The notes: generated from the sequence alone by a model not told the origin. 64,000 nucleotides of DNA from Patescibacteria group bacterium (GCA_018813295.1 JAHJBZ010000002.1:1935-65934); one strand, 5' to 3'. Counted from the first letter of the stretch, positions 2,145 through 64,000 are shown. Program-made: numbers and translations.

Positions 2145-2230
2145 ATTTTTGTTTTTATTTTTAACTTTAAGTTATTTTAGCACGATGGTAGGGTGGAAGC
2201 AATTTATCTCACATATATTAAATAATATAA

Positions 2231-29000: not shown

Positions 29001-31343
29001 TTGCCAGGAATGCCAATACCGGCAAGTGAATTAAAAAGCGTTTTCCATGCTGCACAGCGTACGGAGCTATTTTTTCAGAGATTAATAAACCATCCAGAAT
29101 ATAAACATGCTACAACTCCTACGAAAATAGCAGAACTTATTGAAGAAGTTGGTACTACAAAGCCAAAACATAAAGGAGAAACAACATTACTTAGCACACA
29201 AGAAAGATCTCACTTGATTAAAAAAGTGACTACTGAAAATAAATTACATGGTATAAGTGCTGAACAAAATGTCAGAAATTTCCGATCTATGATTCATGAT
29301 GCCAGGGGAAATATTTTCCTAGAAGCCGAAGTGGCAGCAAAAGTGCCAAAGGGAGCCACAGCAGTGCTTTCAGCGGAAGGTGCAATTATGAAACCAGTGG
29401 AAATACGCAAAGGTGTTTATAATTATTTGGGTGAAGAGTTCACATTCAGACAAGATCAAATTGATGCTGAAGCAAGGAGACTTGGAGGAGACCAAGGGAA
29501 AGCTATTGAAAAGCTTTGCCATCAGGAATGGAGTAAACCAAGAAAAATCGGGGAAAGTGCTAAAGGCAGAACTTATCGATATCGAGGTGCTGAATTTACA
29601 CTCACTGAAGCCGAATATACCGGTAAAAATGCAACTGAAATTAAGGCAGCTTGCGAAGCTAAGTTTATTGAATCAGTTCAAATAACAGATGCACGAACTA
29701 TAAATGGAAAAACACAATTTAAAGTGGGTGAAACATGGGTTGAGCTTGCTCAGGATCCAAAATCTATTGAGCATGTTAAAACCCAATATCTGGATCAGCT
29801 CAAACAGGCAGGCAAGCCGATTGAATATGTGGGCAGAAATCCTGCACTGCTTGAATATATGCCGGTTATGGAAAGGGTTTTTGGCTCAGCAGTTGCAGCT
29901 TTGATTCTTTACCATTTAGAAACTGCTGAGGATAAAAGGAAGGCTATATTTGAATGTACAGTTGGGCTAGGTACTTTTATGGCAGGTGCTGCAGCTACTG
30001 AAAAAGCTTTAAGTGTATGGAAACCTAAAACAATTAAAGGATTTTTAGGAAAGAAGGGGCTGGTACTTTTGGGTGGACTAGGAACAGCCATTGGTGTTAC
30101 TGAGCCTATTTCGGATATCCTTGACGATCTTTGGCCGCATTTTATTGGTGAACAACAGCTTTACACTGAAATTATCGATATTGTTGAAAAATCAACAGGG
30201 CGTAGCTTTGTAAGAACGGGCTTTTCTTTAGCAGAGAGAAAAATAGTTAGAACGGGTGTTGAAAGAATGGGCTTGAAAAGTTTAAGCAGTCTTATGACTA
30301 GGAAAGTAGAATCAACTGCTCTTAAAAAAATAGCTACATTTACCAGTAAGTCACTTATGAGGAAACTTGCTGTCAGCCTTGGTGTAAAAGGTACTACTAT
30401 TGCTTTACTTATTGCTGATGATGCCACCTGGATTGGTGTACTTGATGATATTGTAGCTGTCGGTATGGCTGTGTGGATGGCAAAAGATATATATGATATT
30501 GCGGTTCTTGCCAGAAAGGCACTGAAAATTAAAGTTGCCTTGGAGGATTATAATGAAATGCCTATTGCAAGTATTGAACCAAGTACAGAAGTGGACAGAA
30601 ATGCAATCGAAGCAGAGTTAGCTGTCCGAGGAAAAACGTTGGAGGAAATGACTGATGAAGAAATGATGGAAATGATTCAATCTATGCCCGATATTCGTTT
30701 AAAAATTACAAGAGAGGGTGCAACCGGGTATGAGGAGTATCGTTTTGTTAGAGGTGAAATTTGGTCTACAACAATTAAGAATGAGGCAGGGGAAATTTAT
30801 GAACTTTCCGATGAAGAGCTTAATCAGGAAATTTCAGTATCACCACCTGAAGAGTTTAGACCTTGGGAAATTGATTACAATTTAGCGGAAGATGATTTGC
30901 TTGCCAATTATCGACTAGCGATCATGTATACAAAAAGCGAGTGCGCATGGACAAAAATGGATCATGAATTTACTGATACTAATAATGTTGTAATTAAACG
31001 ATTAGATGGCAATGCTCAGTTAAATCTAACACGTACGGGTGAGACCTGGGCAATTGAAGGATTTAAGAGCGGACTGGATTTTTTCCAAGCTATAGCCTTG
31101 GCTAATTTGATAAATAAAGTGAATGTGATATTGGAAAATGAGAAACACGTTGGTGCTAATCCTCATCCTTTTGAACTTCAGGGTATACATATTGACTTTG
31201 ATCGAAACTGGAACCCTGTTGATTTAAGAATAATAAGTGGTAAAGGCGAATGGGCCAAGTTTTACGAAAAAATCGGCATTAGTAATCAGGAATTGGTTGA
31301 TGTTCTTAATGCCTGGTATGCTGCTGAGCGCATTATTGCCTAA
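26037..31343 (+). CDS. Giant 1768-aa orphan integral membrane protein
   Basis: Single uninterrupted ORF. Several hydrophobic helices are present (SICLLAAGAAGIYLSF, VLWALLVAVLGGIIG, FLALLWAVGGSLII, VAALILYHL, LVLLGGLGTAIGV, TTIALLIADDATWIGVLDDIVAVGMAVWMA). I recognise no catalytic motif. Confidence 0.75.
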   Translation: MAGGPQPSQHRERAGQAPTGVETFEERGGDYSFQDFQEAAEHVEKDPNVEATEKIRMLRGNMNRNEQWEEITAFTQAVVKIVAEVQRNDGNVKRIRKDPTILRQEVTQAGVSGNLMLPELAALDELPRIFGEVGDTSNYIRRLWPEIVDEGVEAGTGLVGRSIDRAKKFIKKNPVGSICLLAAGAAGIYLSFKAITTYLSVKDKGVGETFKEAREKGKESKWYENKVLWALLVAVLGGIIGQKALKNLLKGLNLEELQELLDRGEDIPEEMQRQMEEQAARLEELERKAEGVVGVSGAIEGGREMVTEGIEIVSEASKFEGQCEALLAVYCFNEYRYDPRRDKNKIKKVFEDLREERVIDIIALWEDHKTEDEEGTIPRNTDLYNFGGDIDPKHIYTACWIISQTFDQYKRHLGATNYSSLTLDQFFGEHLAQDPVYKIHSSVQTTITAALEDGDLEDMSLEGIAASIEDDKNEFLMKLAKDLNLTGYSDLSREQKIDFGNIALKLYRDANLDETPDRAMRNIDRSQHFDESFDLAKRFYEAVRENTLNPETGIISRCVDRFNLGPDVVPRLSNADIIKNELSEEIEFGKAVQLNIVAQRIDFSKSPQEGSDPMTELALLYVVLNSITPSGKRRYLSELSNYVLQKPVNINLPSLELIRPYLKTLLDFGIDVGANKIRAGKDWISAYTADRTPEEQEAFLREIRTSNIIEFGAETGKEAGLGTIRIGADVMETIWQSGRVAKEDLQSVETTGDFLALLWAVGGSLIISKNPDEQHTGVIYLFGKYFYVKPLGILRDTLTAWAVGDETGKTSPSVCGAKVYLATTSPFVVIGTAHGYYRNRMIGRTGWRLIGGALEGTARGLAAPITLPVTGTSWIYRAGRAGKETVQTGFNWTWDAAKYKARPARNINIMMRDAQFVKRYFQIRPIESTGVYEEMQRAWAQGPRATAQRLAMPYWNQRMLEKYAIKFNRRYNSYFGKYVSTDITTLSRLPGMPIPASELKSVFHAAQRTELFFQRLINHPEYKHATTPTKIAELIEEVGTTKPKHKGETTLLSTQERSHLIKKVTTENKLHGISAEQNVRNFRSMIHDARGNIFLEAEVAAKVPKGATAVLSAEGAIMKPVEIRKGVYNYLGEEFTFRQDQIDAEARRLGGDQGKAIEKLCHQEWSKPRKIGESAKGRTYRYRGAEFTLTEAEYTGKNATEIKAACEAKFIESVQITDARTINGKTQFKVGETWVELAQDPKSIEHVKTQYLDQLKQAGKPIEYVGRNPALLEYMPVMERVFGSAVAALILYHLETAEDKRKAIFECTVGLGTFMAGAAATEKALSVWKPKTIKGFLGKKGLVLLGGLGTAIGVTEPISDILDDLWPHFIGEQQLYTEIIDIVEKSTGRSFVRTGFSLAERKIVRTGVERMGLKSLSSLMTRKVESTALKKIATFTSKSLMRKLAVSLGVKGTTIALLIADDATWIGVLDDIVAVGMAVWMAKDIYDIAVLARKALKIKVALEDYNEMPIASIEPSTEVDRNAIEAELAVRGKTLEEMTDEEMMEMIQSMPDIRLKITREGATGYEEYRFVRGEIWSTTIKNEAGEIYELSDEELNQEISVSPPEEFRPWEIDYNLAEDDLLANYRLAIMYTKSECAWTKMDHEFTDTNNVVIKRLDGNAQLNLTRTGETWAIEGFKSGLDFFQAIALANLINKVNVILENEKHVGANPHPFELQGIHIDFDRNWNPVDLRIISGKGEWAKFYEKIGISNQELVDVLNAWYAAERIIA

Positions 31344-39696: not shown

Positions 39697-42600
39697 ATCA
39701 AAGGAGGTTTTACCTTGGCGGAATTAGTAATTTCAGTAACTATACTAGCCCTGATAATAACAACCGCATCTGCTGTTTATGTAAACTTTTTCGGTTCTGT
39801 CAGGAATTTGAAGGCAGCGAATTTGGTTTATGAGGAAGCGCGTTTTGTAATGGAACGGATTGTAAAGGAGGTTAGGAATGGGACAATAGATTATGAGGAA
39901 TATTACAATCAAAGCGTAATCAAGCAAGGCTATAGGGATCAAGGTCTACCAGAAGATTATTATGAAGCCGCTAGGAATCCTTCTTATGCACTCGATTATT
40001 GTAAGTATAGTTTACAATTTTATAGTGAGGGACCCGACGGGGAAATTGGTACATTTGATGATGAAAGTTTAGGCGTTCGTAATACAGTGGACGTAGATGG
40101 TGATTATTTGCCTCCTGCTATTGGGTATGTAGAACCTGATGGAGACATTGTTTCCAGCCCAATTCAAAATGATTTGTTTTTAATAAACATTAATGGAGAT
40201 CGTCGTAGTTATGTTAGACGGATTGAAAGGGAAGGCATTGGTAAAATTGGCTTACTTAAGCTCGTAGGGCATGATTTTGGTGTAGATAATATTAATGCTT
40301 CTGATCCTGATCTTGATCCTGCTACTGCGGACTCTTGTGAAACTGACCCTGGCGAAAATGATGGACGTATTGATACCTGGTTATGTGAAGATGGTTTTAC
40401 TTGCTTAGATAGAGCCATTACAAATGCGGATGCCTCTTGTACCGGTATAACACACGATATAATTTATAACCCAGGAGACCCTACGGAAAATAGTTATATA
40501 GATATCACGCCTGCATCACTTGATATTGTGGATGTTAAATTTATTGTTTCTCCAATGGATGATCCACGTAAAGCGTATAGCAATAACAGTGTTCAAATTC
40601 AACCACATGTGACTATAAAGCTTATCGCCCGTGCCAGCCCGAGTATCGCTAATCAATTTACAACTGGTAATACGCCGGATATTGTACTTGAATCCACTGT
40701 TTCTGCCCGGGCATATAATGAGATAATTACTGAATGTAATTTAAAGCAATGCAGTGAGTTTAGCCCACCGGAACCTTGTCTGTTAACTCTGGGTGTTTGT
40801 GGACCTACAGACCCAGCTAATGATCCAGCACTTCAAACTTGTGAAAATTTTGTATGGTCAGGATGTACTGAAGAAACATATCAAGATTACGCCTTAAGTG
40901 AGTGGGGTAATGCGGATTTTTATCAGCATACTACTGAATATGCCTCTTGTGACCCAACTGATCCGCCAGAAACTTATGATGCCTGCAGGCAAAGCTATTG
41001 TGAAGATGATCATGATAATGATTGTGATGGATTTACGGATGAGGAAGATGTGGATTGCCAATCTATACTTTGCGATAACGGAATATATGATGGAGTTGAT
41101 GTAGAAGAGGTAGATAATTGTATCGATGTAGGTGGTGTTTGCTGGCAATTCCATCCATATGAAGAAGGCGAGGAGACCTTATGTTTTGATGAACATGATA
41201 ACGACTGTGACGGAAATGCAGATGAATTTGATCCTGACTGTATCGCCAATGTTATTTGTCAAAACGGTGTACAGGATAGTAATTTTATAAATTTCTTTGA
41301 TTACACTGGACCTTCTACTGGCTATCTTGTTGGTTATACAACTTTTGATGATGATCTTAATGAAGAGGCGGAAGATGTTGGCGGAATCTGTGAGACATAT
41401 GCTGATTTAACTGTAGACGCCCTTATGGGTGATGGCTATGCGGAGGGAATTATTACCGGTTATGATCCGGATAACCCACCTGCCACTGGGGAAAGGCTTG
41501 TACCAGATGCTACATTCGCTGATCATGAAACAGGCAGTTTATGTTATGACGGATTGGATAATGACGGAGATGGTTTTGCGGATGAGTTGGATGGTGCTGA
41601 TACTCCTAGCGACTTAACGGATGATGATTGTTTAGAAGTTATTTGTAACAATGCAGTTCAGGATTGTGATTTGGTTCGTCCAGATTACAGCCCAGCCAAC
41701 TATTTGGTTGGTTTCATTGATACGGATAGTCCGCCATGCTCGGGACTATTTAATGACGAATACTGCACCGATGTGGGTGGAGTTTGTGATGGTCTTCGTG
41801 ATGTTGTTGACCTGAAATATGTTGACCATACAAAAATCAGCAATGAGAACAATCCTCATTCTTATACACCGCCAACACCTGCAAGCAATACCTGTACGGA
41901 TGAATTGGATAATGACTGTGATGGTGATATTGACTGGGAGGATGGCGATTGTTGTATTGACGGAGATAATGATAGTTATGTTGGCGATAGCGAGACATGT
42001 GAGCCTCCTGAACTAACTATAATAGACTGTAATGACAGCGATGCTGCTATTCATCCCGGTGCAACCGAAATATGTGACGGCGTAGCAGATGAAGATTGTG
42101 ATGGGTATGCGGATGAGGATGACTTTGACTGCTGTGATGATGGGGATGGGGATAATTTTGGTACGGTTGATGCATATTTAAATTGTATTGGTGGTTATCC
42201 AAATCCACCTGAGCCGGATTGTGATGATGCGGATGTAAATATATATCCAGGAGCGCCAGAGAACACCGAGGCACTTTGTGATAATCAAATTGATGCAAAT
42301 ACGCCAATAAATGACAACTGCCACACTGAAGTAATTGATGATCCTGGTAATCCTGGAAATGACCTAACGGTTGAAAGGGCGAATCATATTGATTGGTACA
42401 AAGCGACAGTTGGAATTGCTACCGCTTTTGAATATAAATACTTTGAACCAGCTTGTTGTGATCTTTATTCAGTTGAAATTTGTAATGATGCTGGCGATAG
42501 TGATGAGAATTGTGATGGTTTGGAGGGCTATGACGATCATCAGTGTGTAACGGAGGATGGATCTGCATTCCGGGATAACTTTACAAGCAATTCGTTTATA

Positions 42601-42981
42601 GGTGCGACTGAATTTGGTGCAACACAAATTGTAGGCAGTGGTGTTATTACACTTGAACTACCGACTGATGTTGGCATGGTTACAAGTGATAACATAAATC
42701 CTCTCGATCCATCTACATGTGGTGCTAGTGATTTTAGAGTTTCCATTTCAAAATCTGACAGTACTCCTGGCAGTAGCACAATTAAATATCAATTAAGTAA
42801 TGATGGTACAACCTGGTATGGAGATGCTGGGCAGGGAGATTGGATTGAAGCTGGTGATCTGCTTGAATATACATTTACCACATCTGACTACGATATTTAC
42901 TGGCGTGCAGAACTTGAAGGCGATGGCTCCTCTTCTCCATCTATTACTTATGTTAATTTGACTTATAACTGCGTTCCATAA
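39697..42981 (+). CDS. Giant PilW-like minor pilin with Cys/Asp-rich DNDCDG metal-binding-type repeats; start codon unresolved (ATC 39697 or TTG 39715)
   Basis: In-frame ..KSKIKGGFTLAELVISVTILALIITTASAVYVNFFGS..EEARFVMERIVKEVRNGT is PilW-like. About seven repeats of the C..(D/E)..DNDCDG..DE.D.DC / DC.D.D..I.PGA.E type lie between roughly 40990 and 42545. Confidence 0.7.
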   Translation: MKGGFTLAELVISVTILALIITTASAVYVNFFGSVRNLKAANLVYEEARFVMERIVKEVRNGTIDYEEYYNQSVIKQGYRDQGLPEDYYEAARNPSYALDYCKYSLQFYSEGPDGEIGTFDDESLGVRNTVDVDGDYLPPAIGYVEPDGDIVSSPIQNDLFLININGDRRSYVRRIEREGIGKIGLLKLVGHDFGVDNINASDPDLDPATADSCETDPGENDGRIDTWLCEDGFTCLDRAITNADASCTGITHDIIYNPGDPTENSYIDITPASLDIVDVKFIVSPMDDPRKAYSNNSVQIQPHVTIKLIARASPSIANQFTTGNTPDIVLESTVSARAYNEIITECNLKQCSEFSPPEPCLLTLGVCGPTDPANDPALQTCENFVWSGCTEETYQDYALSEWGNADFYQHTTEYASCDPTDPPETYDACRQSYCEDDHDNDCDGFTDEEDVDCQSILCDNGIYDGVDVEEVDNCIDVGGVCWQFHPYEEGEETLCFDEHDNDCDGNADEFDPDCIANVICQNGVQDSNFINFFDYTGPSTGYLVGYTTFDDDLNEEAEDVGGICETYADLTVDALMGDGYAEGIITGYDPDNPPATGERLVPDATFADHETGSLCYDGLDNDGDGFADELDGADTPSDLTDDDCLEVICNNAVQDCDLVRPDYSPANYLVGFIDTDSPPCSGLFNDEYCTDVGGVCDGLRDVVDLKYVDHTKISNENNPHSYTPPTPASNTCTDELDNDCDGDIDWEDGDCCIDGDNDSYVGDSETCEPPELTIIDCNDSDAAIHPGATEICDGVADEDCDGYADEDDFDCCDDGDGDNFGTVDAYLNCIGGYPNPPEPDCDDADVNIYPGAPENTEALCDNQIDANTPINDNCHTEVIDDPGNPGNDLTVERANHIDWYKATVGIATAFEYKYFEPACCDLYSVEICNDAGDSDENCDGLEGYDDHQCVTEDGSAFRDNFTSNSFIGATEFGATQIVGSGVITLELPTDVGMVTSDNINPLDPSTCGASDFRVSISKSDSTPGSSTIKYQLSNDGTTWYGDAGQGDWIEAGDLLEYTFTTSDYDIYWRAELEGDGSSSPSITYVNLTYNCVP

Positions 42982-56200: not shown

Positions 56201-56830
56201 ATGGAATATATTCTCCAGCTCGACATCCATGGATACCCCCTACTAATGATTCCATGGAATATTATTTTGGCATTGGTGCCTTGCGCCATCGTCTACTATT
56301 TGGCGAAAGGGGTTGGTAAGAAAAAATGGAAACAGCTAAAAAATGACAGGTTTGCTTTTATGCTGATCTTTTTGATCTGGCTTTTTGTGCTGCCTAACAC
56401 TGCTTATCTTTTTATGATACCGAGGCATTTGGTGAATTATTGTGACAATCTTAGTATGTACCGAGTGTGTCTGGATGGATCGTGGTTGGTGATGTTCTTT
56501 TTTGCATATGCGCTTATCGGACTGCCGACTTTTTATTATGGACTTAATAAAATGGTTCGTATTTTTAAGACGATGTGTGGTGATTTGGCCGCGAAACTTT
56601 TGCCTATTTTTACGATCCCATTAATATCGATAGCTGTAATGTTTGGGCTGTATTCGCGTTATAACAGCTGGGACGTAGTGTTTCGGCCGAATTGTTTATT
56701 GAAGACTGTTGCTTCGTATTTTTCTGAGACCCATCTTTTGATTGATTTTGTTGTATTTACTCTGGGGCTTTATTTGATTTACTATGTAACTCGCTACGCT
56801 GTGGATGCGTCCCGATTACGGGACTGTTGA
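56201..56830 (+). CDS. DUF1361-like integral membrane protein; the last ~13 codons are supplied by a repeat element
   Basis: 209 aa and multi-TM with an LPNTAYLF..RHL motif. The C-terminal TRYAVDASRLRDC* is encoded by the left arm of the CTGTGGAT element. Confidence 0.55.
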   Translation: MEYILQLDIHGYPLLMIPWNIILALVPCAIVYYLAKGVGKKKWKQLKNDRFAFMLIFLIWLFVLPNTAYLFMIPRHLVNYCDNLSMYRVCLDGSWLVMFFFAYALIGLPTFYYGLNKMVRIFKTMCGDLAAKLLPIFTIPLISIAVMFGLYSRYNSWDVVFRPNCLLKTVASYFSETHLLIDFVVFTLGLYLIYYVTRYAVDASRLRDC

Positions 56831-56923
56831 TTCGGCTAACGCCTGTGGCTGAATTCAGTATACTTATTACATCCACAGCGTAGCGCATACATGCCCGATA
56901 GGGCGAATCCACAGCGTAGCGAA
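56791..56923. repeat. MITE/REP-like hairpin element (CTGTGGAT family), copy 3
   Basis: tcgctacgctgtggatgcgtcccgattacgggactgt...cccgatagggcgaatccacagcgtagcgaaa. It shares ctgtggatgcgtcccgattac.ggactgt with copy 1. Confidence 0.7.
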
Positions 56924-56939
56924 ATAAAATAGGAGAACC

Positions 56940-57215
56940 ATGATAAGAGTTCACTTAAAAATCAGAGGCAAAGTACAAGGCGTGTTCTTCCGCGCCCATA
57001 CTCAGGAAAAAGCTGAGAAGCTTGGTGATATAACTGGCTGGGTTGCGAATAATGCGGATGGAACTGTTGATGTGGTGGCAGAGGGGCCGGAGAATAAAAT
57101 TAATGATTTAATTGATTGGTGCCATAGTGGCCCGAGTACTTCTCAGGTAGAAAAAGTTGAGGTTGAAAAATTGACTTATAATGGCGAGTTTGATAGCTTT
57201 GGTATCCGGTACTGA
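56940..57215 (+). CDS. acyP: Acylphosphatase
   Basis: 91 aa with VHLKIRGKVQGVFFR and GWV.N..DG.V motifs. Confidence 0.9.
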   Translation: MIRVHLKIRGKVQGVFFRAHTQEKAEKLGDITGWVANNADGTVDVVAEGPENKINDLIDWCHSGPSTSQVEKVEVEKLTYNGEFDSFGIRY

Positions 57216-57220
57216 TAAGT

Positions 57221-57300
57221 AATTTACAATTCACAATTTACAATTTACAAATAAACTTCAAAACCTTTTAAAATTTAAAATTGTAAATTTAAAATTAAAA
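57221..57300. repeat. AT-rich hairpin (TTTACAATTT/AAATTGTAAA family)
   Basis: aatttacaattcacaatttacaatttacaaa...aaaatttaaaattgtaaatttaaaatt. Confidence 0.5.
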
Positions 57301-57304
57301 TAAA

Positions 57305-58093
57305 ATGGCTTCAGAAAAATATCCAATACTAATCACAATCCCCCACTGTTCTACCTTTGTTCCTGCGGATTTAAGGCGCATGATGGAGTTAACAGATGCG
57401 CAAATAAGGAGGCAGTGCGATCCTTTTACGGATGTTATTTTTGATGTGCCAAAAGTTCATGTTGTTAAGGCAAAAATTTCCAGGCTGGTGACTGATTTGA
57501 ATCGCGCACCGGATGATATTGAGATGGAGTATAAACTTTCCAACGATGGTGTTGTGGTGAGTGTAGATTTGGATGGTAACCAGATTTACAAAACACCGCC
57601 TTCTATTAAAACAATTTTTGATCGTGTTAAAAGATATCACGATACATTTCATGAAAAAATTGAGGAAATAAAGCCAAATATTAAATTTTTGATAGACGGT
57701 CACTCCCTGCGTAGTGTTTCCCCGCCTACGAGATCAGATGCGGGTACAGAGCGCGCGGATATTGTTCTCGGTAATCGCGATTTTACAACTTGCACCCGCA
57801 ATATGACTAAAAAGGTCATGAGATTTTTTCAAGACCGCGGTTATTCCGTTGCGATAAATGATCCGTATAAAGGCAGGTATTTAATTGGCTATCATTGTTC
57901 CCGCCGCCATCTTCCTGGTATCCAGATTGAGATTAATGAAAGGCTTTATATAAACGAAAAAACCCACCGCCCACATCAGGATAAAATGTATGATCTTCGT
58001 ACCATTATGGCAAAACTTGTGGATGAGATTGATGAAGAAATAGAAAAAATCGGCGTACCAGCTGGATCGAGGGGGCAGGAGAGGTTGTTTTGA
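57305..58093 (+). CDS. N-formylglutamate amidohydrolase-family protein
   Basis: 262 aa with IPHCST, DLNR and DGHS motifs in the order typical of the FGase family. Confidence 0.65.
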   Translation: MASEKYPILITIPHCSTFVPADLRRMMELTDAQIRRQCDPFTDVIFDVPKVHVVKAKISRLVTDLNRAPDDIEMEYKLSNDGVVVSVDLDGNQIYKTPPSIKTIFDRVKRYHDTFHEKIEEIKPNIKFLIDGHSLRSVSPPTRSDAGTERADIVLGNRDFTTCTRNMTKKVMRFFQDRGYSVAINDPYKGRYLIGYHCSRRHLPGIQIEINERLYINEKTHRPHQDKMYDLRTIMAKLVDEIDEEIEKIGVPAGSRGQERLF

Positions 58094-58186
58094 TTGATTT
58101 CTGCCTACGGCGGTGGTCTAATTGGAGGCCTAATTGGTGTAATGCACCCATAAGGTCACCTATTAGAACCTCAATTAGAAATACTC

Positions 58187-58228
58187 TTGACTTTTATTTT
58201 CATGTTCGATATAATTCTAGTATACTAG
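58187..58228 (+). promoter_or_regulatory. Sigma-70 promoter (TTGACT-17-TATAAT) with an overlapping CTAG-TATA-CTAG palindrome (TrpR-type operator candidate)
   Basis: -35 is at 58187-58192 and -10 at 58210-58215, with a 17-nt spacer. The perfect 12-bp palindrome CTAGTATACTAG at 58217-58228 covers the expected transcription start. Confidence 0.65.
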
Positions 58229-58253
58229 TATATTGTTATATTACTTTTTTCTT

Positions 58254-58502
58254 ATGAACCTATATTTAAGAAAGCTGGTGGATAAATTAGTAAAAACTAA
58301 TAACAAAAGAGATATGGTTGACCTGCTTGAAGCTCTGTTTACCCCTCAGGAACTTAGGTCAATCCCACGTAGACTTGAAATAATTCATTTGATAAAAAAA
58401 GGCATGCCACAACACGACATCGCAAAAAAGCTTGGCGTAGGTGTTGCAACTGTGTCACGTGGTGCAAATGAAGTAAAACTTGGACGCTTTAAAAATGTTT
58501 AA
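58254..58502 (+). CDS. TrpR/YerC-family trp repressor-like protein
   Basis: LFTPQELRSIPRRLEIIHLIKKGMPQHDIAKKLGVGVATVSRGANEVK parallels the E. coli TrpR segment LTPDE..R..I...L..G..SQR.I...LG.GIATITRGSN.LK. ATG 58254 is preferred over the TTG at 58233. Confidence 0.75.
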   Translation: MNLYLRKLVDKLVKTNNKRDMVDLLEALFTPQELRSIPRRLEIIHLIKKGMPQHDIAKKLGVGVATVSRGANEVKLGRFKNV

Positions 58503-58551
58503 AATTATAAACAATTGGTGGGAGTTGCAAAAAAGCCGTTATCAACGGTAG
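58495..58551 (+). CDS. trpL: trp leader peptide with tandem Trp codons (MFKIINNWWELQKSRYQR*)
   Basis: The 18-codon ORF was read by hand, with TGG TGG at 58516-58521. Its ATG overlaps the end of the TrpR-like gene. Its 3' end contains the antiterminator strand. Confidence 0.65.
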   Translation: MFKIINNWWELQKSRYQR

Positions 58552-58580
58552 TTTTGTAGTAATCGCTAAAACTATTTGAT

Positions 58581-58603
58581 GACGGCCAACGGGCCGTTTT
58601 TTT
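58581..58603 (+). terminator. Attenuator terminator immediately upstream of the trp fusion gene
   Basis: Stem ACGGCC (58582-87) / GGCCGT (58592-97) with loop AACG and a U-tract to 58603. The alternative pairing of AGCCGTTATC (58534-43) with GATGACGGCC (58578-87) is an antiterminator. Confidence 0.7.
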
Positions 58604-58623
58604 AATATTTAATTTATTTAACA

Positions 58624-61600
58624 ATGTTAACCGAAGAAAATTTCAATCAGCCATATGCACTTATCTCGAAAGGGGATAATATTCATTTTTACAGCGGAAA
58701 ATTCTTTCGTTTCGATAAATTAGACGATCTTGAGAAGTTTTATAACGAAAGCGACTCTCCTCTAATTTTTATAACTCCATTTTCCGTCGCAAAAGAGAAG
58801 GGATTCAAGGTGGTTGGCGACGAAAAAATACTCATATTACAGGCTGAGCTTAATCAAAAAATAACAGTTGAGTATCTTGATCAATTTATTTCAGACAAAT
58901 CGATTGAGTTAGATGGGGAAATATCTCCTTCCAAGTCAAATGAAGATTTTGCAAATGAGGTCAAACGGATCCAAAGTGAGGAAATTGCCGAAGGAAATGC
59001 TTGTCAGGTGGTTTTGTCTCGTAAATTTCAGGGCAGGATCGACGATATGACTCCAGGGGATCCACTTGTACTGTTTAGACGTTTGCTTTTACAAAAGGGG
59101 CAGTATATGACCTTTTTATTTTCGGACGGGCAAGGGCATTTCTTTGTTGGTGCTTCACCTGAGAGGCAATTGGAGATAAGGGGTGGCAATGTAGTAAAGA
59201 ACCCAATTGCAGGCACCATGCCTAAAGGTGAAAGGGGTGGGTTTAAGGAGAGATTGATAGAGTTTTTAAATGATCCAAAAGAGACTAATGAGTTATCACA
59301 AGTGTTAGATGAAGAACTAAAAATGATGGCTCAAATTTGCCCTGAGGGTGGGAAGATATTTGGACCATATTTACGTGAAACCGGAGCTGTTATACACAGC
59401 GAATATCATTTGGTAGGCCGCAGCAGCAAGCCTCCAATTCAGGCGCTAAAGGAATCTTTTCATGCTCCTACTTTGGTAGGCAGCCCACTTGAGAGTGCTT
59501 TTAGAATTATCGCAAAACGAGAACAGGAATCGCGACGTTATTATGGAGGTGAATTTGGGATAATGGAGCCAAATGGTGATATTGATAGCGCAATTATGAT
59601 CCGCACTGCTGAGATTGATAAGGATGGCAGTTTTGTCATTCAGGCTGGTGCTGGTATTGTGCGTGATTCACTTCCTGAGAAAGAGGCAAATGAAACACGC
59701 ATAAAAGCGGCCGGTATGATTAGTGCTTTAATGGGCGATCAGCGCTTTTCTAAATCTTATTTAGACGATATAGATAAAAAAGCTATTGAGCCAATTCTTA
59801 AAAAACGAAATCAGCGTTTTTCTCGTTTTCATTTCGAAGATCAGTTTGATTTTGTGGAAGAAGGCAAATTAAAAGGATTGAACATTACAATTGTAAATAA
59901 TGAGGATAATTTTGCGCATATGTTGGGACATATAGTTCGTCATATGGGATGCATCTACAAGGTTATTGATACTTTTGATTATTCACCTCAAGATGACACT
60001 AGTGATGTGGTGATTCTTGGACCTGGACCAGGAAATATTAATGATGAAGCGGATCCTCGCATGCAAAAATTATTGACAATCACCAGACAGCTATTGGACG
60101 AAAGTAGGCCTGTGCTAGGGATTTGTCTTGGTAACCAGGCACTTGGCAAGAGCTTGGGGATGATTGTAGAAAAGCAAAAGATCTCCACTCAAGGTGTTCA
60201 AATTCCAATTAATTATTTTGGGAAAAAGGAAAAAGTCGGTTTTTATAATTCGTTTATTCCTCGCTACAAAAAAACTGAACAGCAGATTGAAACTAGCTTG
60301 AACGAGGAAGAGCAAGTCGTTGCTATGAAAGGTAAAGGTATGGCTGGTTTGCAATTTCATCCTGAATCCGCGATGAGCCAGAATGGATATGGAATTCTGA
60401 AGGATGCGCTCTTTTTTCTCGCCCCAAAAAAATCCCTTCCCAAAGATCAAATTAAACAATTTGTTAAGCAGAGCGTTTCAGGAGCGATGACGCTTGATGA
60501 ACAAAAAGAGTTTCTGGTTGATTTGAATGAAAAAGGCTATACCGGAACTGATATTGCTAATTTTATAAAAGCTTTATACAAAGAAATGTCGAAGGAGGTT
60601 TGCGCAAAAGATGCAATTGATATTTGCGGTACCGGAGGGTCTAATCTTCCAAGAATTAACACTTCGACCTTGGCTGCTTTTGTTTGTGCTACTTGTGGGA
60701 TCTCAATTGCTAAACATGGAAACCGAGCTGCCAGTGGTAGGTTTGGTAGTTTTGATTTATTGGAAGCTTTGGGGGTTAACATTGAGGCAAATCACAAGCG
60801 ATTAGAACTGCTTTATAAAAATACGAATTTGGCATTTATTTTCGCACAAAAATTCCATCCCGTTATGAAGCATTTTGCCAAAGCTCGAAAAGAGATAGGG
60901 CAGAAAACGATCTTTAATCTTCTCGGACCACTTCTTAATCCTGCAAATCCAGGTAGGCAGATTATTGGTGTATCGAGTGTCGATGATATGGAGCTTATTA
61001 TCGAAGCAGCAAAGGGGCTTGGCAAAAAACATGTGATGGTCGTTTGTGGATCTGACGGGCTTGATGAGGTTACGATTACCGGACCCACTGATGTGATGGA
61101 GTTAAAAAACGGGGAAATTGCCAAATACACCATTAGGCCTGAGGATTTTGGAGTCAAATCTACAGCTTTTGACTCAATTGCAGGGGGCACTCCTGAGATA
61201 AATACGGAATTAGCAAAAGAAATTTTAGCCGGAACTTGTAAATCTAAACATTTGGATTTGATTTTAGTAAACGTTGCACTAATTTTGAAGTTTGACGGAA
61301 AGGTAAAAGATCTAAAATCCGGCATAAAAATGGCAAGAGAAGTTATAGAAAATGGATCTGTTCAGGCTGTTTTTGAGAAGTATAAGGAGATGAGCTGCAG
61401 CCCTAGCTTCTTACAAAAAGTCGTAAATTCAAAAATGGAGGAAGTTGCAAAATTAAAAAAACAATACCCTCTTGAGCAAATAAAAAAAGACCTCAAACCA
61501 TCTGATCGGGATTTTAAGTCTGCCCTCAGAGGAAAAGATAAATTAAGCCTGATTGCCGAAATTAAACTATCTTCCCCTAGCTTGCCGGACTTATATAAAG

Positions 61601-62775
61601 GCGATCTGAGTGTTGAGGAAATAGCCGTCTGTTATGAAAAAAATGGAGCTTCGGCTATTTCTGTACTCAGTGATAAGGAATTCTTTAAAGGCTCATATGA
61701 CAATTTGAATAAGGCGAGTAAGGCGACTTTAAAGACTCCGATCCTTATGAAGGATTTTGTAATTGATCCGTATCAGATTTATTTGGGGCGTTATTTTGGG
61801 GCTGATGCTGTGTTGCTTATCGCTGCGCTTTTAGACTTAGATACACTGAATTATTTGATAAAACTCGCGCACAGTTTGAATATGGATGCCCTTGTTGAAA
61901 TTCATGATGAAGATGAATTAAAAACCGTGCTTGATAGTTCTGCAGATATTATTGGTATTAACAATCGGGATCTTGAAACGCTGGAAGTAAGCACCAAAAT
62001 AACCTTGAGACTTTCTTCATCAATTCCAACTGACAAAGTGATTGTGGCGGAAAGCGGGTATGACGAAAGCAATGTAAGTCTGATTTCAGGAAAAACTGAT
62101 GCTGTTTTAATTGGCACATCTATTTTAAAAAGGACTGACATATCATCAGCAGTAGACCGTCTGGTTAATCCCGCTAAGGCTATTAAAATTTGTGGGGTAA
62201 CGGACTGTGAAACCGCTAAACTCTGTGATGAAAATGGAGTAACAATGATTGGTTTAAATTTTGTACCAAGCAGTAAAAGATATGTTAACTTTGACGAAGC
62301 CAGAAAAATCAGACCCTATATTAACCGAGCTGCTGTAGTTGGAATTTTCCAGGATCGCCCTGCTGAAGAAGTAAATCGGATCGCAGATGAATTGGACTTG
62401 GATTATGTTCAGCTTGCTGGAAGTGAATTACCTGCATATTGCAGCCAAATAAAAAAACCTGTGATTAAGACTATTAGGATTGATGATATGCTGCCTGATG
62501 ATATGCTTGATTCATTTAATAAATGCGTTGAAATGTTTGTATTGGACGGCCAAAAACCAGGTTCCGGCAAACCTTATGATTACAAAACTATAGATGGTAA
62601 TAAGTTTAAAAAACCTTTTTTAGTTGCTGGCGGAATAGCTTCAAAAAATGCCTCAGACGCTTTAAGGAGCACATCTGCTATTGGAATTGATGTGGCTAGT
62701 GGAGTTGAATCTAAGGGGAAAAAGGACCCTAAATTAATTAAACAACTTATTCAGACTTTAACCTTAAAATTATGA
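58624..62775 (+). CDS. trpEGDCF: Pentafunctional tryptophan-biosynthesis fusion protein TrpE-TrpG-TrpD-TrpC-TrpF
   Basis: 1383 aa in five domains.
- aa 1-370: chorismate-utilising domain (PIAGTMPKG, GSPLESAFRII, RRYYGGEFG, AGAGIVRDSLPEKEANET).
- aa ~419-598: GATase (GICLGNQAL, QFHPES).
- aa ~605-922: TrpD (ICGTGGSN..NTST, KHGNRAASGRFGSFDLLEALG).
- aa ~928-1180: TrpC (IAEIKLSSPS, LMKDFVIDPYQI, GINNRDLETL).
- aa ~1186-1383: TrpF (IKICGVT, IGLNFVPSSKRYV). Confidence 0.9.
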   Translation: MLTEENFNQPYALISKGDNIHFYSGKFFRFDKLDDLEKFYNESDSPLIFITPFSVAKEKGFKVVGDEKILILQAELNQKITVEYLDQFISDKSIELDGEISPSKSNEDFANEVKRIQSEEIAEGNACQVVLSRKFQGRIDDMTPGDPLVLFRRLLLQKGQYMTFLFSDGQGHFFVGASPERQLEIRGGNVVKNPIAGTMPKGERGGFKERLIEFLNDPKETNELSQVLDEELKMMAQICPEGGKIFGPYLRETGAVIHSEYHLVGRSSKPPIQALKESFHAPTLVGSPLESAFRIIAKREQESRRYYGGEFGIMEPNGDIDSAIMIRTAEIDKDGSFVIQAGAGIVRDSLPEKEANETRIKAAGMISALMGDQRFSKSYLDDIDKKAIEPILKKRNQRFSRFHFEDQFDFVEEGKLKGLNITIVNNEDNFAHMLGHIVRHMGCIYKVIDTFDYSPQDDTSDVVILGPGPGNINDEADPRMQKLLTITRQLLDESRPVLGICLGNQALGKSLGMIVEKQKISTQGVQIPINYFGKKEKVGFYNSFIPRYKKTEQQIETSLNEEEQVVAMKGKGMAGLQFHPESAMSQNGYGILKDALFFLAPKKSLPKDQIKQFVKQSVSGAMTLDEQKEFLVDLNEKGYTGTDIANFIKALYKEMSKEVCAKDAIDICGTGGSNLPRINTSTLAAFVCATCGISIAKHGNRAASGRFGSFDLLEALGVNIEANHKRLELLYKNTNLAFIFAQKFHPVMKHFAKARKEIGQKTIFNLLGPLLNPANPGRQIIGVSSVDDMELIIEAAKGLGKKHVMVVCGSDGLDEVTITGPTDVMELKNGEIAKYTIRPEDFGVKSTAFDSIAGGTPEINTELAKEILAGTCKSKHLDLILVNVALILKFDGKVKDLKSGIKMAREVIENGSVQAVFEKYKEMSCSPSFLQKVVNSKMEEVAKLKKQYPLEQIKKDLKPSDRDFKSALRGKDKLSLIAEIKLSSPSLPDLYKGDLSVEEIAVCYEKNGASAISVLSDKEFFKGSYDNLNKASKATLKTPILMKDFVIDPYQIYLGRYFGADAVLLIAALLDLDTLNYLIKLAHSLNMDALVEIHDEDELKTVLDSSADIIGINNRDLETLEVSTKITLRLSSSIPTDKVIVAESGYDESNVSLISGKTDAVLIGTSILKRTDISSAVDRLVNPAKAIKICGVTDCETAKLCDENGVTMIGLNFVPSSKRYVNFDEARKIRPYINRAAVVGIFQDRPAEEVNRIADELDLDYVQLAGSELPAYCSQIKKPVIKTIRIDDMLPDDMLDSFNKCVEMFVLDGQKPGSGKPYDYKTIDGNKFKKPFLVAGGIASKNASDALRSTSAIGIDVASGVESKGKKDPKLIKQLIQTLTLKL

Positions 62776-64000
62776 ACTACAAGAAAGCAATTTTTAACAA
62801 AGATGGTCATTTTGGAACTTATGGCGGCAGGTATGTGCCGGAACTTCTCGTGCCAATTATGGATGATTTGGCAGACACTTTTTTCAAAGCCATTAAAGAC
62901 AAGGAATTTTTGGAGGAGCTGAATAATCTTTACAAAAATTATATCGGCAGGCCTTCGCCGCTTGTTCATCTAAAAAACCTATCAGATAAGTTAGGTGGCG
63001 CCCAGATTTATTTAAAAAATGAGGGGCTTAATCATACCGGTGCCCATAAAATTAATCACTGCCTTGGGCAAGGATTACTAGCAAAAAGAATGGGCAAAAA
63101 ACGTATTATTGCAGAAACCGGTGCAGGCCAGCATGGCCTGGCTACCGCTACTATATGCGCTAAATTTGGACTGGGGTGTACTGTTTATATGGGTGCTAAG
63201 GATTATGACCGCCAAAGACCGAATGTATTTTGGATGGAACAGTTGGGTGCACAGGTTATTCCAGTTTACGAAGGTGGACAGATTTTGAGAGATGCGATTA
63301 ATGCAGCCTTGCGTGACCTCATTTCTAATCCGATAGATAGTCATTATTTACTAGGAACAGTTTGTGGACCGCATCCTTATCCTGTCATGAATACATATTT
63401 TCAAAGAGTGATAGGAGGGGAAGTTCGTAAACAATTAAAAATTAAACCGGACTACCTTGTTGCTTGTGTGGGCGGAGGTAGTAATGCGATAGGACTTTTT
63501 TATGAATTTCTGGATGACAAGAACATTACAATGATCGGAGTTGAAGCTGGCGGGAAAGGAATAAAAAGCAAGAAGCACGCCGCTCGTTTTCAAGGTGGCA
63601 GTAAAGGTGTTGCGGAAGGTTTCAAATCCTTCTTTTTGCAAGACGATGATGGTCAGCTAGCTGAAACCCACAGTATTTCCGCCGGACTTGATTATTCTGG
63701 TGTCGGACCACAAATGGCTTATTTAAAGGAAAAAGGGCGTATTAAATTTACTTATTCGACGGATAAAGATGTTCTTAAGGCCTATAAAACACTCGCCAAA
63801 ACGGAAGGTATTTTAGCCGCTCTGGAATCCTGCCATGCAGTGGCGGAAGTTATTAAACTAGCACCGACCTTAAAACCCAAGCAGACAATTGTGGTGAATG
63901 GTTCCGGGAGAGGTGATAAGGATTTATTTATTGTCACGAAGGAGCTGAAGGATGAGGGATTTAGGGAATTTCTGAGGGAGCAGGGTTGTACCTTGGTTCC
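62772..64000 (+). CDS. trpB: Tryptophan synthase beta chain (3' end beyond window)
   Basis: Read by hand: MNYKKAIFNKDGHFGTYGGRYVPELL.., LNHTGAHKINH (PLP lysine), ETGAGQHG, GGGSNAIG, SISAGLDYSGVGP. The ATG overlaps the fusion-gene stop in ATGA. The frame is still open at 64000, past the usual TrpB C-terminus. Confidence 0.93.
   Translation, partial: MNYKKAIFNKDGHFGTYGGRYVPELLVPIMDDLADTFFKAIKDKEFLEELNNLYKNYIGRPSPLVHLKNLSDKLGGAQIYLKNEGLNHTGAHKINHCLGQGLLAKRMGKKRIIAETGAGQHGLATATICAKFGLGCTVYMGAKDYDRQRPNVFWMEQLGAQVIPVYEGGQILRDAINAALRDLISNPIDSHYLLGTVCGPHPYPVMNTYFQRVIGGEVRKQLKIKPDYLVACVGGGSNAIGLFYEFLDDKNITMIGVEAGGKGIKSKKHAARFQGGSKGVAEGFKSFFLQDDDGQLAETHSISAGLDYSGVGPQMAYLKEKGRIKFTYSTDKDVLKAYKTLAKTEGILAALESCHAVAEVIKLAPTLKPKQTIVVNGSGRGDKDLFIVTKELKDEGFREFLREQGCTLV

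Follow-up and report, generated by a model that had tools for sequence, protein, structure and literature searches.

A five-domain TrpE-G-D-C-F fusion with a PhzE-type E-G module in a probable tryptophan operon of a Patescibacteria group bacterium

Introduction

PhzE (Protein Data Bank (PDB) entries 3R74-3R76), whose product is 2-amino-2-deoxyisochorismate (ADIC), carries on one chain a chorismate-binding domain whose N-terminus is short, a linker of about 50 residues and a C-terminal class-I glutamine amidotransferase (GATase). The same arrangement forms the first two modules of the protein studied here, which is encoded in a 64,000-nucleotide stretch of DNA from a Patescibacteria group bacterium (GCA_018813295.1, JAHJBZ010000002.1:1935-65934; this whole stretch is called the window below). 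In this protein, the PhzE-like part is followed on the same chain by the tryptophan biosynthesis domains TrpD, TrpC and TrpF, giving the order E-G-D-C-F. Both proteins have the motifs KE..EL..LDEELKMM, PIAGT/PISGT and H(T/S)EY. Unlike PhzE, to which it is 34% identical, the E-G part of the window protein belongs to a sister clade, has no phz neighbours, is fused to TrpD-C-F in a trp operon, possesses Gln128, Gly312 and Gly344 in place of the Asn, Ala and Thr of PhzE, and probably forms anthranilate instead of ADIC.

With the classical anthranilate synthase (AS) TrpE/TrpG of Serratia marcescens (PDB 1I7Q), the window protein shares the predicted overall reaction, the location in a trp operon, the motifs PIAGT, YGGxxG and GAG(I/V)V, the residues H258 (His398) and Q128 (Gln263), the Mg-binding E...E pair and the Cys-His-Glu triad of the GATase. 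It differs from this enzyme in that the similarity is confined to the catalytic core, the Anth_synt_I_N domain is absent, TrpE models score far under their cut-offs and E is joined to G as in PhzE. PMC5897657 and PMC5958127 cite the fused monomeric AS of Streptomyces venezuelae (Ashenafi et al. 2015). This is a stand-alone actinomycete E-G protein, unlike the five-domain fusion, and is described as a working single-chain AS to which free ammonia is of no use as a substrate (PMC5897657).

The trp fusions of bacteria (in E. coli TrpG-D and TrpC-F, in databases also D-C-F, G-D-C and G-D-C-F proteins) are built from the same modules in the same order, but none of them has a chorismate-binding E domain. 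The fungal trifunctional G-C-F protein also has several trp activities on one chain. The Euglena protein reportedly covers the late steps, from the phosphoribosyltransferase to tryptophan synthase, and lacks AS; the window protein, unlike it, is bacterial and comprises E, G, D, F and C, the early part of the pathway. PMC2395257 names Euglena as the most extreme example, a polypeptide that carries five catalytic domains.

A regulated Trp branch in a Patescibacteria, Peregrinibacteria-like host bears on how dependent such organisms are. Bacteria of the candidate phyla radiation (CPR), to which Patescibacteria belong, are generally thought to lack amino-acid synthesis. Ca. Peribacter is without most of it (PMC4736985), and Trp-synthesis genes have been noted in the GTDB class Gracilibacteria (PMC9166423). 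The locus described below is probably a Trp-biosynthesis operon with a five-activity fusion under dual control. Its elements are of known kinds (trp fusions, PhzE-family enzymes, control by TrpR and a leader), and it does not form a new category.

Results and discussion

One open reading frame encodes five trp domains

The fusion gene is one open reading frame (ORF) on the plus strand (58624..62775) with an ATG start, a TGA stop and no internal stop codon in its 1383 codons. The first-pass annotation had read five trp domains in the order E-G-D-C-F from this frame, and a Pfam search recovered all of them (Chorismate_bind, GATase, Glycos_transf_3 for TrpD, IGPS and PRAI), collinear and each far over its cut-off (Table 1). 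The junctions that it had estimated at about 59730-59880, 60400-60440, 61390-61420 and 62140-62180 agree with the domain boundaries, and the catalytic signature that it had read for each domain is present in the product and invariant in an alignment of 16 fusion sequences. A frame of 1383 codons with five ordered, high-scoring domains cannot have originated by chance at 38-39% G+C.

Module E has the invariant elements PIAGT (194-198), K219/E220, H258, RRYYGGExG (304-312), GAGIV (342-346) and E354/E357, and the linker to module G contains the conserved motif RN..FS.FH.EDQ. The catalytic triad of module G, Cys501 (GICLG), His579 and Glu581 (QFHPES), is invariant and of the TrpG type. Module D shows the invariant motifs GTGGS (669-673), KHGN (697-700), R755 and DGLDE (811-815, with D814-E815) and passes the NCBIfam trpD model TIGR01245 with 333.8 bits (cut-off 199), as a TrpD protein should. 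Its N-terminal helical domain is too divergent to match PF02885 in the window protein; a weak match was obtained with the related database protein P0003. Residues E979, K981, K1043, E1092, N1113 and E1143 (adjoining S1144) of module C are invariant, as are Cys1190 (KICG) and Asp1308 of module F, and the C-F part passes the model for bifunctional TrpC/TrpF (NF006945) with 385.6 bits (cut-off 380).

Table 1 Features of the trp locus (window coordinates; amino acid positions refer to the fusion protein)
Feature	Coordinates (strand)	Residues	Basis or remark
Sigma-70-type promoter, -35 TTGACT, 17-nt spacer, -10 TATAAT	58187..58215 (+)		11/12 consensus positions; consensus match only
TrpR-operator-like palindrome CTAGTATACTAG, with a pair of CTAG boxes at 8-bp spacing	58217..58228 (+)		just after -10
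trpR-like gene, 82 aa from ATG	58254..58502 (+)		PF01371 Trp_repressor, 1.3e-18; 82 aa also in L032
Leader peptide ORF, trpL-like, 18 aa, MFKIINNWWELQKSRYQR and stop	58495..58551 (+)		read from sequence
Predicted antiterminator, GCCGUUAUCA (58535-58544) pairing with UGAUGACGGC (58577-58586)	58535..58586 (+)		encloses UAGUUUU/AAAACUA
Intrinsic-terminator-like hairpin GACGGCC-AACG-GGCCGUU and U-run	58581..58605 (+)		19 nt before fusion ATG
Module E, PhzE-type chorismate-aminating domain, short N-terminus	58624..59733 (+)	1-370	Chorismate_bind, PhzE/TrpE alignments
Chorismate_bind (PF00425)		106-361	Pfam 8.6e-50
E-G linker, PhzE-like	59734..59883 (+)	371-420	PhzE alignment unbroken across linker
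Module G, class-I glutamine amidotransferase	59884..60417 (+)	421-598	GATase domain
GATase (PF00117)		423-596	Pfam 2.8e-24
Module D, anthranilate phosphoribosyltransferase including divergent N-terminal helical part	60418..61398 (+)	599-925	Pfam, TIGR01245
Glycos_transf_3 (PF00591)		662-912	Pfam 5.1e-79
Module C, synthase for indole-3-glycerol phosphate	61399..62172 (+)	926-1183	IGPS domain
IGPS (PF00218)		930-1180	Pfam 2.6e-71
Module F, phosphoribosylanthranilate isomerase	62173..62772 (+)	1184-1383	PRAI domain
PRAI (PF00697)		1188-1377	Pfam 9.1e-42
trpB (TrpB1 type), first 409 of 418 codons	62772..64000 (+)		TIGR00263

The fusion protein is free of tryptophan (0 of 1383 residues), although the long ORFs of the window, with 0.91% Trp, would lead one to expect about 12.6 residues. 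Trp is absent from the TrpR-like protein too, and TrpB has one Trp in 409 residues. Enzymes of Trp synthesis that contain no Trp are a known hallmark of proteins made under Trp starvation.

The PRPP (phosphoribosyl pyrophosphate)-binding motif of module D (nt 60628-60642) reads GTGGS instead of the usual GTGGD, and the Ser is invariant across the fusion family. In the Sulfolobus TrpD, replacement of the Asp of GTGGD is said to relieve inhibition by Mg2+; the exchange of Asp for Ser may be adaptive.

The fusion is conserved and not an assembly artefact

Since the window was taken from a metagenome-assembled genome (MAG), we considered whether the long frame could be a chimera of the assembly, could hide a frameshift, or could be a pseudogene formed by accidental joining. 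Damage does occur in some of the relatives: L015 is disrupted within D, L041 has a stop at residue 183 and L007 contains a run of N. A second assembly, the contig L032 (Logan SRR2540949), however, encodes exactly the same protein and has no mismatch to window positions 57315-64000 over 6686 nt. In a search of 5.8 billion proteins, at least 22 clusters at the 90% identity level contained proteins of 1336-1389 amino acids with the same five Pfam domains and 51-65% identity to the query; these fused clusters, more than 20, come from different samples and carry two phylum-level labels. The alignment of 16 fusion sequences is collinear through all four junctions; its sole large indel comprises 15 amino acids in one sequence at the G-D junction, the junction alignments being otherwise gap-free, and the catalytic residues are all invariant. 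Finally, the split variants described below are interrupted at clean ATGA overlaps and not at random. An artefact or a decaying gene is scarcely credible in view of these results, and a chimera or frameshift is ruled out by the second assembly, the fused clusters, the alignment and the clean split forms. We conclude that the predicted product is a genuine single polypeptide with five domains.

To assess how common this architecture is, we used residues 1-1185 of the fusion to search a library of 1.84 billion representatives clustered at 50% identity. P0001 was the only representative spanning E-G-D-C, so the fusion family is narrow, and the architecture is rare. A metagenome scan for closer relatives found only Marinimicrobia-type loci with 53-57% identity. 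The deposited labels of the fused relatives, which may be unreliable, are Gracilibacteria, Peribacteria or Patescibacteria for the clade of the window, Marinimicrobia or Neomarinimicrobiota, and in some cases 'Lentisphaeria'.

The first-pass annotation knew of no five-domain E-G-D-C-F protein. As far as descriptions are concerned, this stands: the searchable literature yielded none of a five-domain bacterial trp fusion, and its matches to 'trpEGDCF' were operons. The protein is not unique, as it is already present in databases, under names such as 'anthranilate phosphoribosyltransferase' and 'phzE' that hide four of the five functions. The architecture is therefore public, rare, under-annotated and apparently undescribed. 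It is the largest prokaryotic trp fusion found in sequence databases or the searchable literature, with five of the seven pathway activities on one chain.

An E-G module of the PhzE type

Among PDB sequences, residues 46-596 aligned best with residues 69-630 of PhzE (3R74; E=1.7e-93, 34% identity). The second-best match was 4-amino-4-deoxychorismate (ADC) synthase 4GRH, and TrpE structures matched the E module at about 1e-25 over the catalytic core only. The PhzE match is decisive for the predicted fold of the E-G module. Two peculiarities had been noticed in the TrpE-like module, its short length of about 370 residues and the sequence KETNELSQVLDEEL in place of the K..EH..V.D motif. Both were correct, and the second is nearly invariant in the family; they are explained by the E-G module being, according to these alignments, a member of the PhzE/ADIC synthase branch, of which the KE..EL..LDEELK signature and the short N-terminus are traits. 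Pfam found no match to Anth_synt_I_N (PF04715) in the fusion protein, so the N-terminal part of the classical Trp feedback site is missing or different.

The module has the catalytic domain of a TrpE component I (PF00425, PIAGT, the His398 equivalent H258, and E354/E357), and it lacks the regulatory region and the equivalog score of this family. From the PhzE family it has the single-chain architecture and the similarity, and it lacks both the association with phz genes and the residues that characterize the PhzE clade. In a neighbour-joining tree, the window E-G grouped with E-G genes linked to trp operons (L016, L017, L023) and apart from PhzE, on whose side homologues fused to 3-deoxy-D-arabino-heptulosonate 7-phosphate (DAHP) synthase or isochorismatase are found (P0023 and P0028 carry such domains). 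Eleven alignment columns are conserved in each of the two clades and different between them. At five of these 11 columns the window clade agrees with S. marcescens TrpE, and at three others the PhzE clade does. The TrpE-like columns include Gln128 (TrpE Gln263; Asn in PhzE), Gly312 (YYGGExG, versus YYSGxAAL in PhzE) and Gly344 (GAGIV, versus G-S-T-L-V in PhzE), which correspond to N151, A335 and T371 in PhzE numbering.

These TrpE-type residues at positions where PhzE differs, together with the trp context and the clade, make it likely that the E-G module itself releases anthranilate. A true ADIC synthase without pyruvate elimination would require another source of anthranilate: a separate lyase, a slow conversion that occurs spontaneously or as a side reaction, or supply from outside the cell. 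PhzE being the best structural relative by a wide margin, and the PhzE-like signature and short N-terminus, speak for such an enzyme, and the active sites of PhzE and AS are too alike for sequence to show why PhzE stops at ADIC (PMC5958127). Lim6, a PhzE homologue, yields some anthranilate (PMC5958127). However, the module is covalently joined to TrpD-C-F and lies under predicted Trp-responsive control, and members of its clade are found in complete trp operons, where the stretches fetched show no second AS gene. No PhzD isochorismatase, PhzF or PhzG was found in the window or in the neighbourhoods of the relatives, the neighbours being trpR, trpB, trpA and housekeeping genes, and Q128, G312 and G344 are as in TrpE and unlike the PhzE clade. 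An ADIC-releasing enzyme is improbable on this evidence. The S. venezuelae AS reportedly has a sequence like that of PhzE; in that case a PhzE-type AS would have a biochemical precedent. Fused, split and trp-operon-linked members of the family offer a comparison set for the question why PhzE stops at ADIC while AS eliminates pyruvate, with Gln128, Gly312 and Gly344 as three candidate positions for the outcome.

Chemistry closer to PhzE or PabB had been suggested for this module. The PhzE part of this suggestion agrees with our alignments; PabB-type chemistry is unlikely, since the motif is PIAGT and not the PabB-type PIKGT, and since the relative L001 has a separate pabA-pabB-pabC cluster.

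This cluster (L001 1-4700, from the Gracilibacteria-labelled MAG JANQKP01) comprises pabA, a short pabB of 350 amino acids, pabC, folP, PTPS, folK and folE and is located 3-8 kb upstream of the trpR-fusion operon; chorismate should therefore be available in that organism. In another Gracilibacteria-labelled contig (L025 3001-4773), a PhzE-type E-G gene is intact only under genetic code 25 (TGA = Gly) and is fragmented under table 11; no trp genes lie within 3 kb of it. The E-G family is, as judged from this contig, present in recoded CPR genomes too. In an Oscillospiraceae-labelled MAG (L021 4860-5810), a gene for a GATase-chorismate mutase (CM_2) fusion protein lies directly 3' of a more distant PhzE-type E-G gene; its predicted product is a different pairing at the chorismate branch point.

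Fused, split and separate arrangements

Reading the loci from the genome and metagenome scan frame by frame, we found three arrangements. The gene is fused across the G-D junction in about 14 loci (the window/L032, L001/L003, L002, L004, L005, L006, L008, L009, L033-L037 and L039); L033-L037 and L039 stop short of the 3' end of the gene and demonstrate the fusion through G-D only. In L010, L011, L012, L038, L040 and L043 (possibly the same organism as L010), and also in L015, it is split into E-G (about 607 amino acids) and D-C-F (about 775-800 amino acids), with an ATGA overlap exactly at the G-D boundary. Separate genes occur in alphaproteobacteria-labelled MAGs, in the order trpD-C-F-B-A followed by a PhzE-type E-G gene (L017, L023) or trpB-trpA-EG (L016). 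In addition, databases contain many D-C-F proteins of about 790 amino acids (P0045, P0052, P0065 and others), G-D-C proteins (P0050, P0103) and the four-domain G-D-C-F protein P0049 (961 amino acids), so that the five-domain protein can be regarded as the end of a series.

The fusion is thus caught in two states among close relatives, E-G and D-C-F with an ATGA overlap, and fused. The split forms nest among the fused forms in a quick neighbour-joining tree, which suggests repeated fusion or fission, conceivably through a one-base change at the ATGA overlap. Most likely, E-G and D-C-F were at first two genes with coupled translation, and the fusion would have formed when the overlapping stop and start were lost. 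As a natural example, the family lends itself to studies of domain fusion, of stoichiometric expression and of the possible channelling of anthranilate and the unstable phosphoribosylanthranilate (PRA).

A trpR-like gene and a putative leader precede the fusion gene

Upstream of the fusion gene, the window has a promoter, an operator-like palindrome, a trpR-like gene and a leader peptide ORF (Table 1). The promoter is placed directly 5' of the operator and trpR in L002 as well. The palindrome CTAGTATACTAG has a single match in the 64 kb and resembles the E. coli trp operator (CTAGTTAACTAG core). The same pattern occurs upstream of trpR in L002 and in L001/L003 (two overlapping copies; three CTAG boxes with 8-bp spacing), and in the Marinimicrobia-type loci a related G(T/C)ACTAGTAC overlaps the -10 box. 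The trpR-like gene, which the ORF listing starts at TTG 58233, encodes a recognition helix GVGVATVSRGAN that resembles GAGIATITRGSN of E. coli. Its presumed co-transcription with the trp genes is also a feature of the chlamydial trpR-trpBA layout.

The ATG of the leader overlaps the end of trpR (stop 58500-58502), and its tandem Trp codons are at 58516-58521. Leader ORFs with Trp codons were present in every locus examined. In L002 (~453-509) the leader MFNSIKNWWALSNSCYQQ, followed by a stop, has the same position overlapping trpR, and the leader of L015 reads MINYISWWWDISEPWLS before its stop. In L003 (=L001 7639-7953) and L004, the sequence SWWQKL(I/F)W is in frame as the C-terminal tail of TrpR, ending in SWWQKLIWRA and SWWQKLFWQT, respectively, with the terminator directly after it. 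To our knowledge, no repressor has been described whose own C-terminal translation would serve as the sensor for attenuation.

The terminator hairpin has a 7-bp stem with five G-C pairs followed by a T-run and belongs to the minimum-energy fold, the z-score of the leader being -3.43; L002, L003, L004 and L015 have equivalent hairpins with T-runs. In the predicted folds, the antiterminator sequesters the 5' arm of the terminator. Masking the position of a ribosome stalled on the WW codons made the minimum-energy fold flip to the antiterminator (-23.1 kcal/mol); the terminator formed in free RNA and when the ribosome was placed on the leader stop codon. The region thus has what is expected of an attenuator upstream of the first biosynthetic gene: an ORF with Trp codons, mutually exclusive predicted antiterminator and terminator hairpins, and a U-run.

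The TrpR-like repressor would bind the CTAG palindrome at the promoter, and ribosome-mediated attenuation would act through the 18-residue WW leader ahead of the antiterminator/terminator switch. We infer from sequence and RNA folding a two-tier control by repressor and attenuator, as in E. coli. Common to both are the CTAG-type promoter palindrome, a TrpR or TrpR-like protein, the tandem-Trp leader and the mutually exclusive predicted hairpins. Unlike in E. coli, the leader here overlaps the trpR stop, or forms an in-frame TrpR tail in L003 and L004, and does not match an Rfam Trp leader. This would be E. coli-style dual control outside the Proteobacteria, with a leader overlapping or fused to trpR.

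A well conserved promoter, TTGACA-ATGTTCTA..G(C/T)ACTAGTACA(C/A)T, lies about 130-170 nt upstream of the fusion start in the Marinimicrobia-type loci L008-L012 and L033-L043, where the operator-like palindrome overlaps the -10 box although no trpR gene is adjacent. Leader ORFs of 21-25 amino acids with one or two Trp codons near the end are present in these loci; no obvious U-run terminator was seen in L008-L012 and L033-L043.

The downstream trpB gene

TrpB scored 562 bits with TIGR00263 (cut-off 392) and is 71-79% identical to the separate TrpB proteins of the relatives. At the junction AAATTATGAACTAC, the trpB ATG (62772-62774) overlaps the TGA of the fusion gene (62773-62775), as the first-pass annotation had stated. 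It had also described trpB as open at the window end, with a TrpB-TrpA fusion as a possibility. The gene is indeed open at base 64000, after 409 codons; the identical contig L032 has a TAG nine codons further on, giving a TrpB of 418 amino acids. In relatives, a TrpB of 406-411 amino acids is followed by a separate trpA for 257-260 amino acids. A TrpB-TrpA fusion therefore finds no support, and trpA is expected beyond the window end.

The trpB stop sits within a 23-bp inverted repeat, which has a single G·U pair and a loop of about 35 nt and extends from window positions 63977-64000 into L032 6663-6748; the last 62 nt of L032 hold an imperfect inverted copy of the 23 nt straddling the window end. 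The repeat encodes a lineage-specific tail of TrpB (REQGCTLVPKLDNSLTE). This hairpin could be a terminator or a processing hairpin ahead of trpA; a fold-back artefact at the contig end is less likely because the repeat is imperfect.

Proposed function of the locus

We propose an operon with the order promoter/operator, trpR, trpL, trp(E-G-D-C-F) and trpB, with trpA expected beyond the window. We deduce the enzyme steps from the conserved domains, from the catalytic residues and from the surrounding genes. The five activities on one chain would take chorismate to indole-3-glycerol phosphate (IGP): module G would hydrolyse glutamine, the PhzE-type module E would aminate chorismate at C2 and then probably eliminate pyruvate to give anthranilate, module D would add PRPP, module F would isomerise PRA and module C would close the indole ring. 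The separate TrpB, with TrpA, would complete the pathway.

Tryptophan is indicated as the product by trpB as the next gene in the window, by trpB and trpA in relatives and by the TrpR-like gene upstream. We also considered that the locus may serve secondary metabolism (from ADIC, anthranilate or indole) or PabB-type folate synthesis, as most PhzE-family enzymes act in secondary metabolism, fusions to DAHP synthase or isochorismatase occur in more distant homologues, and ADC synthase ranked second among PDB structures. Such a role is very improbable: tryptophan is indicated by trpB and trpA, by the TrpR-like gene, by the WW leader and by the lack of Trp in the enzyme, the motif reads PIAGT instead of PIKGT, a relative has its own folate cluster just upstream, and no tailoring genes were found nearby in the window annotation.

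Several observations weigh against a Trp operon of the proposed kind. The NCBIfam AS models all scored far under their cut-offs (TIGR00564 141.9 against 517.7, NF010081 175.7 against 645, TIGR01815 153.7 against 739). The nearest characterised relative, PhzE, stops at ADIC, and the prediction of anthranilate as the product is drawn from the context and from a small number of motif columns; the neighbour-joining clade tree carries no support values. The TrpR-like protein reached 51.7 bits with TIGR01321, under the cut-off of 67.25; YerC/YecD gave 33.1, so that the protein is under both NCBIfam cut-offs. The predicted fold switch was seen in three of the five loci tested (window, L003, L004) and was absent from the minimum-energy folds of L002 and L015. 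Rfam had no family at the leader at gathering or permissive thresholds, which is expected because the lineage differs. The ATGA coupling to trpB is not kept in L001 and L002, where the genes are adjacent or spaced, and trpA lies outside the window.

A Trp-biosynthesis operon remains our preferred explanation of the locus. More tentatively, and with appreciable doubt that all its parts hold together, we suggest the following combination: a single-chain enzyme from chorismate to IGP in a CPR (Patescibacteria) bacterium would include an AS that evolved within the PhzE architecture, Gln128, Gly312 and Gly344 would decide between release of ADIC and its conversion to anthranilate, anthranilate and the labile PRA would be handed over directly between modules, and the Trp-sensing leader would be coupled to TrpR or be its tail.

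Host and genomic surroundings

The window is ordinary chromosomal DNA, with genes for UvrA, ValS, LeuS, GlmS, DnaG, RpoD, GreA and RuvAB and for several giant domain-less proteins. The LeuS encoded in it matches at 100% identity an NCBI protein that bears the label 'Patescibacteria group bacterium'; the next matches, at 73-77%, include 'Candidatus Peregrinibacteria'. The host is labelled Patescibacteria and is Peregrinibacteria-like. Genetic code 25, which we considered because some relatives are labelled Gracilibacteria, does not apply to the window, as 38 ORFs of at least 150 amino acids tile it under table 11. The TGA stop of the fusion gene that overlaps the trpB start also speaks against code 25, and the true code-25 locus L025 has only E-G.

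Just upstream of the trp operon (56201-58093, plus strand) are genes for a DUF1361 membrane protein, an acylphosphatase (91 amino acids) and an N-formylglutamate amidohydrolase family protein (262 amino acids); these upstream genes have no evident tie to tryptophan. A protein of at least 723 amino acids with a type-IV-pilin-like N-terminus (KKAFTLVELLIVVVIIG) leaves the left end of the window (1-2170, minus strand), and G+C is 0.47 in this region versus about 0.38 in the rest of the window. Three giant ORFs encode proteins of 1768 (26037-31343, plus), 1088 (39715-42981, plus) and 725 amino acids (12762-14939, minus). They matched no Pfam or NCBIfam family except for a MopE-type metal-binding motif in the protein of 1088 amino acids, and their products are similar to the giant surface proteins that have been described from genomes of Peribacteria.

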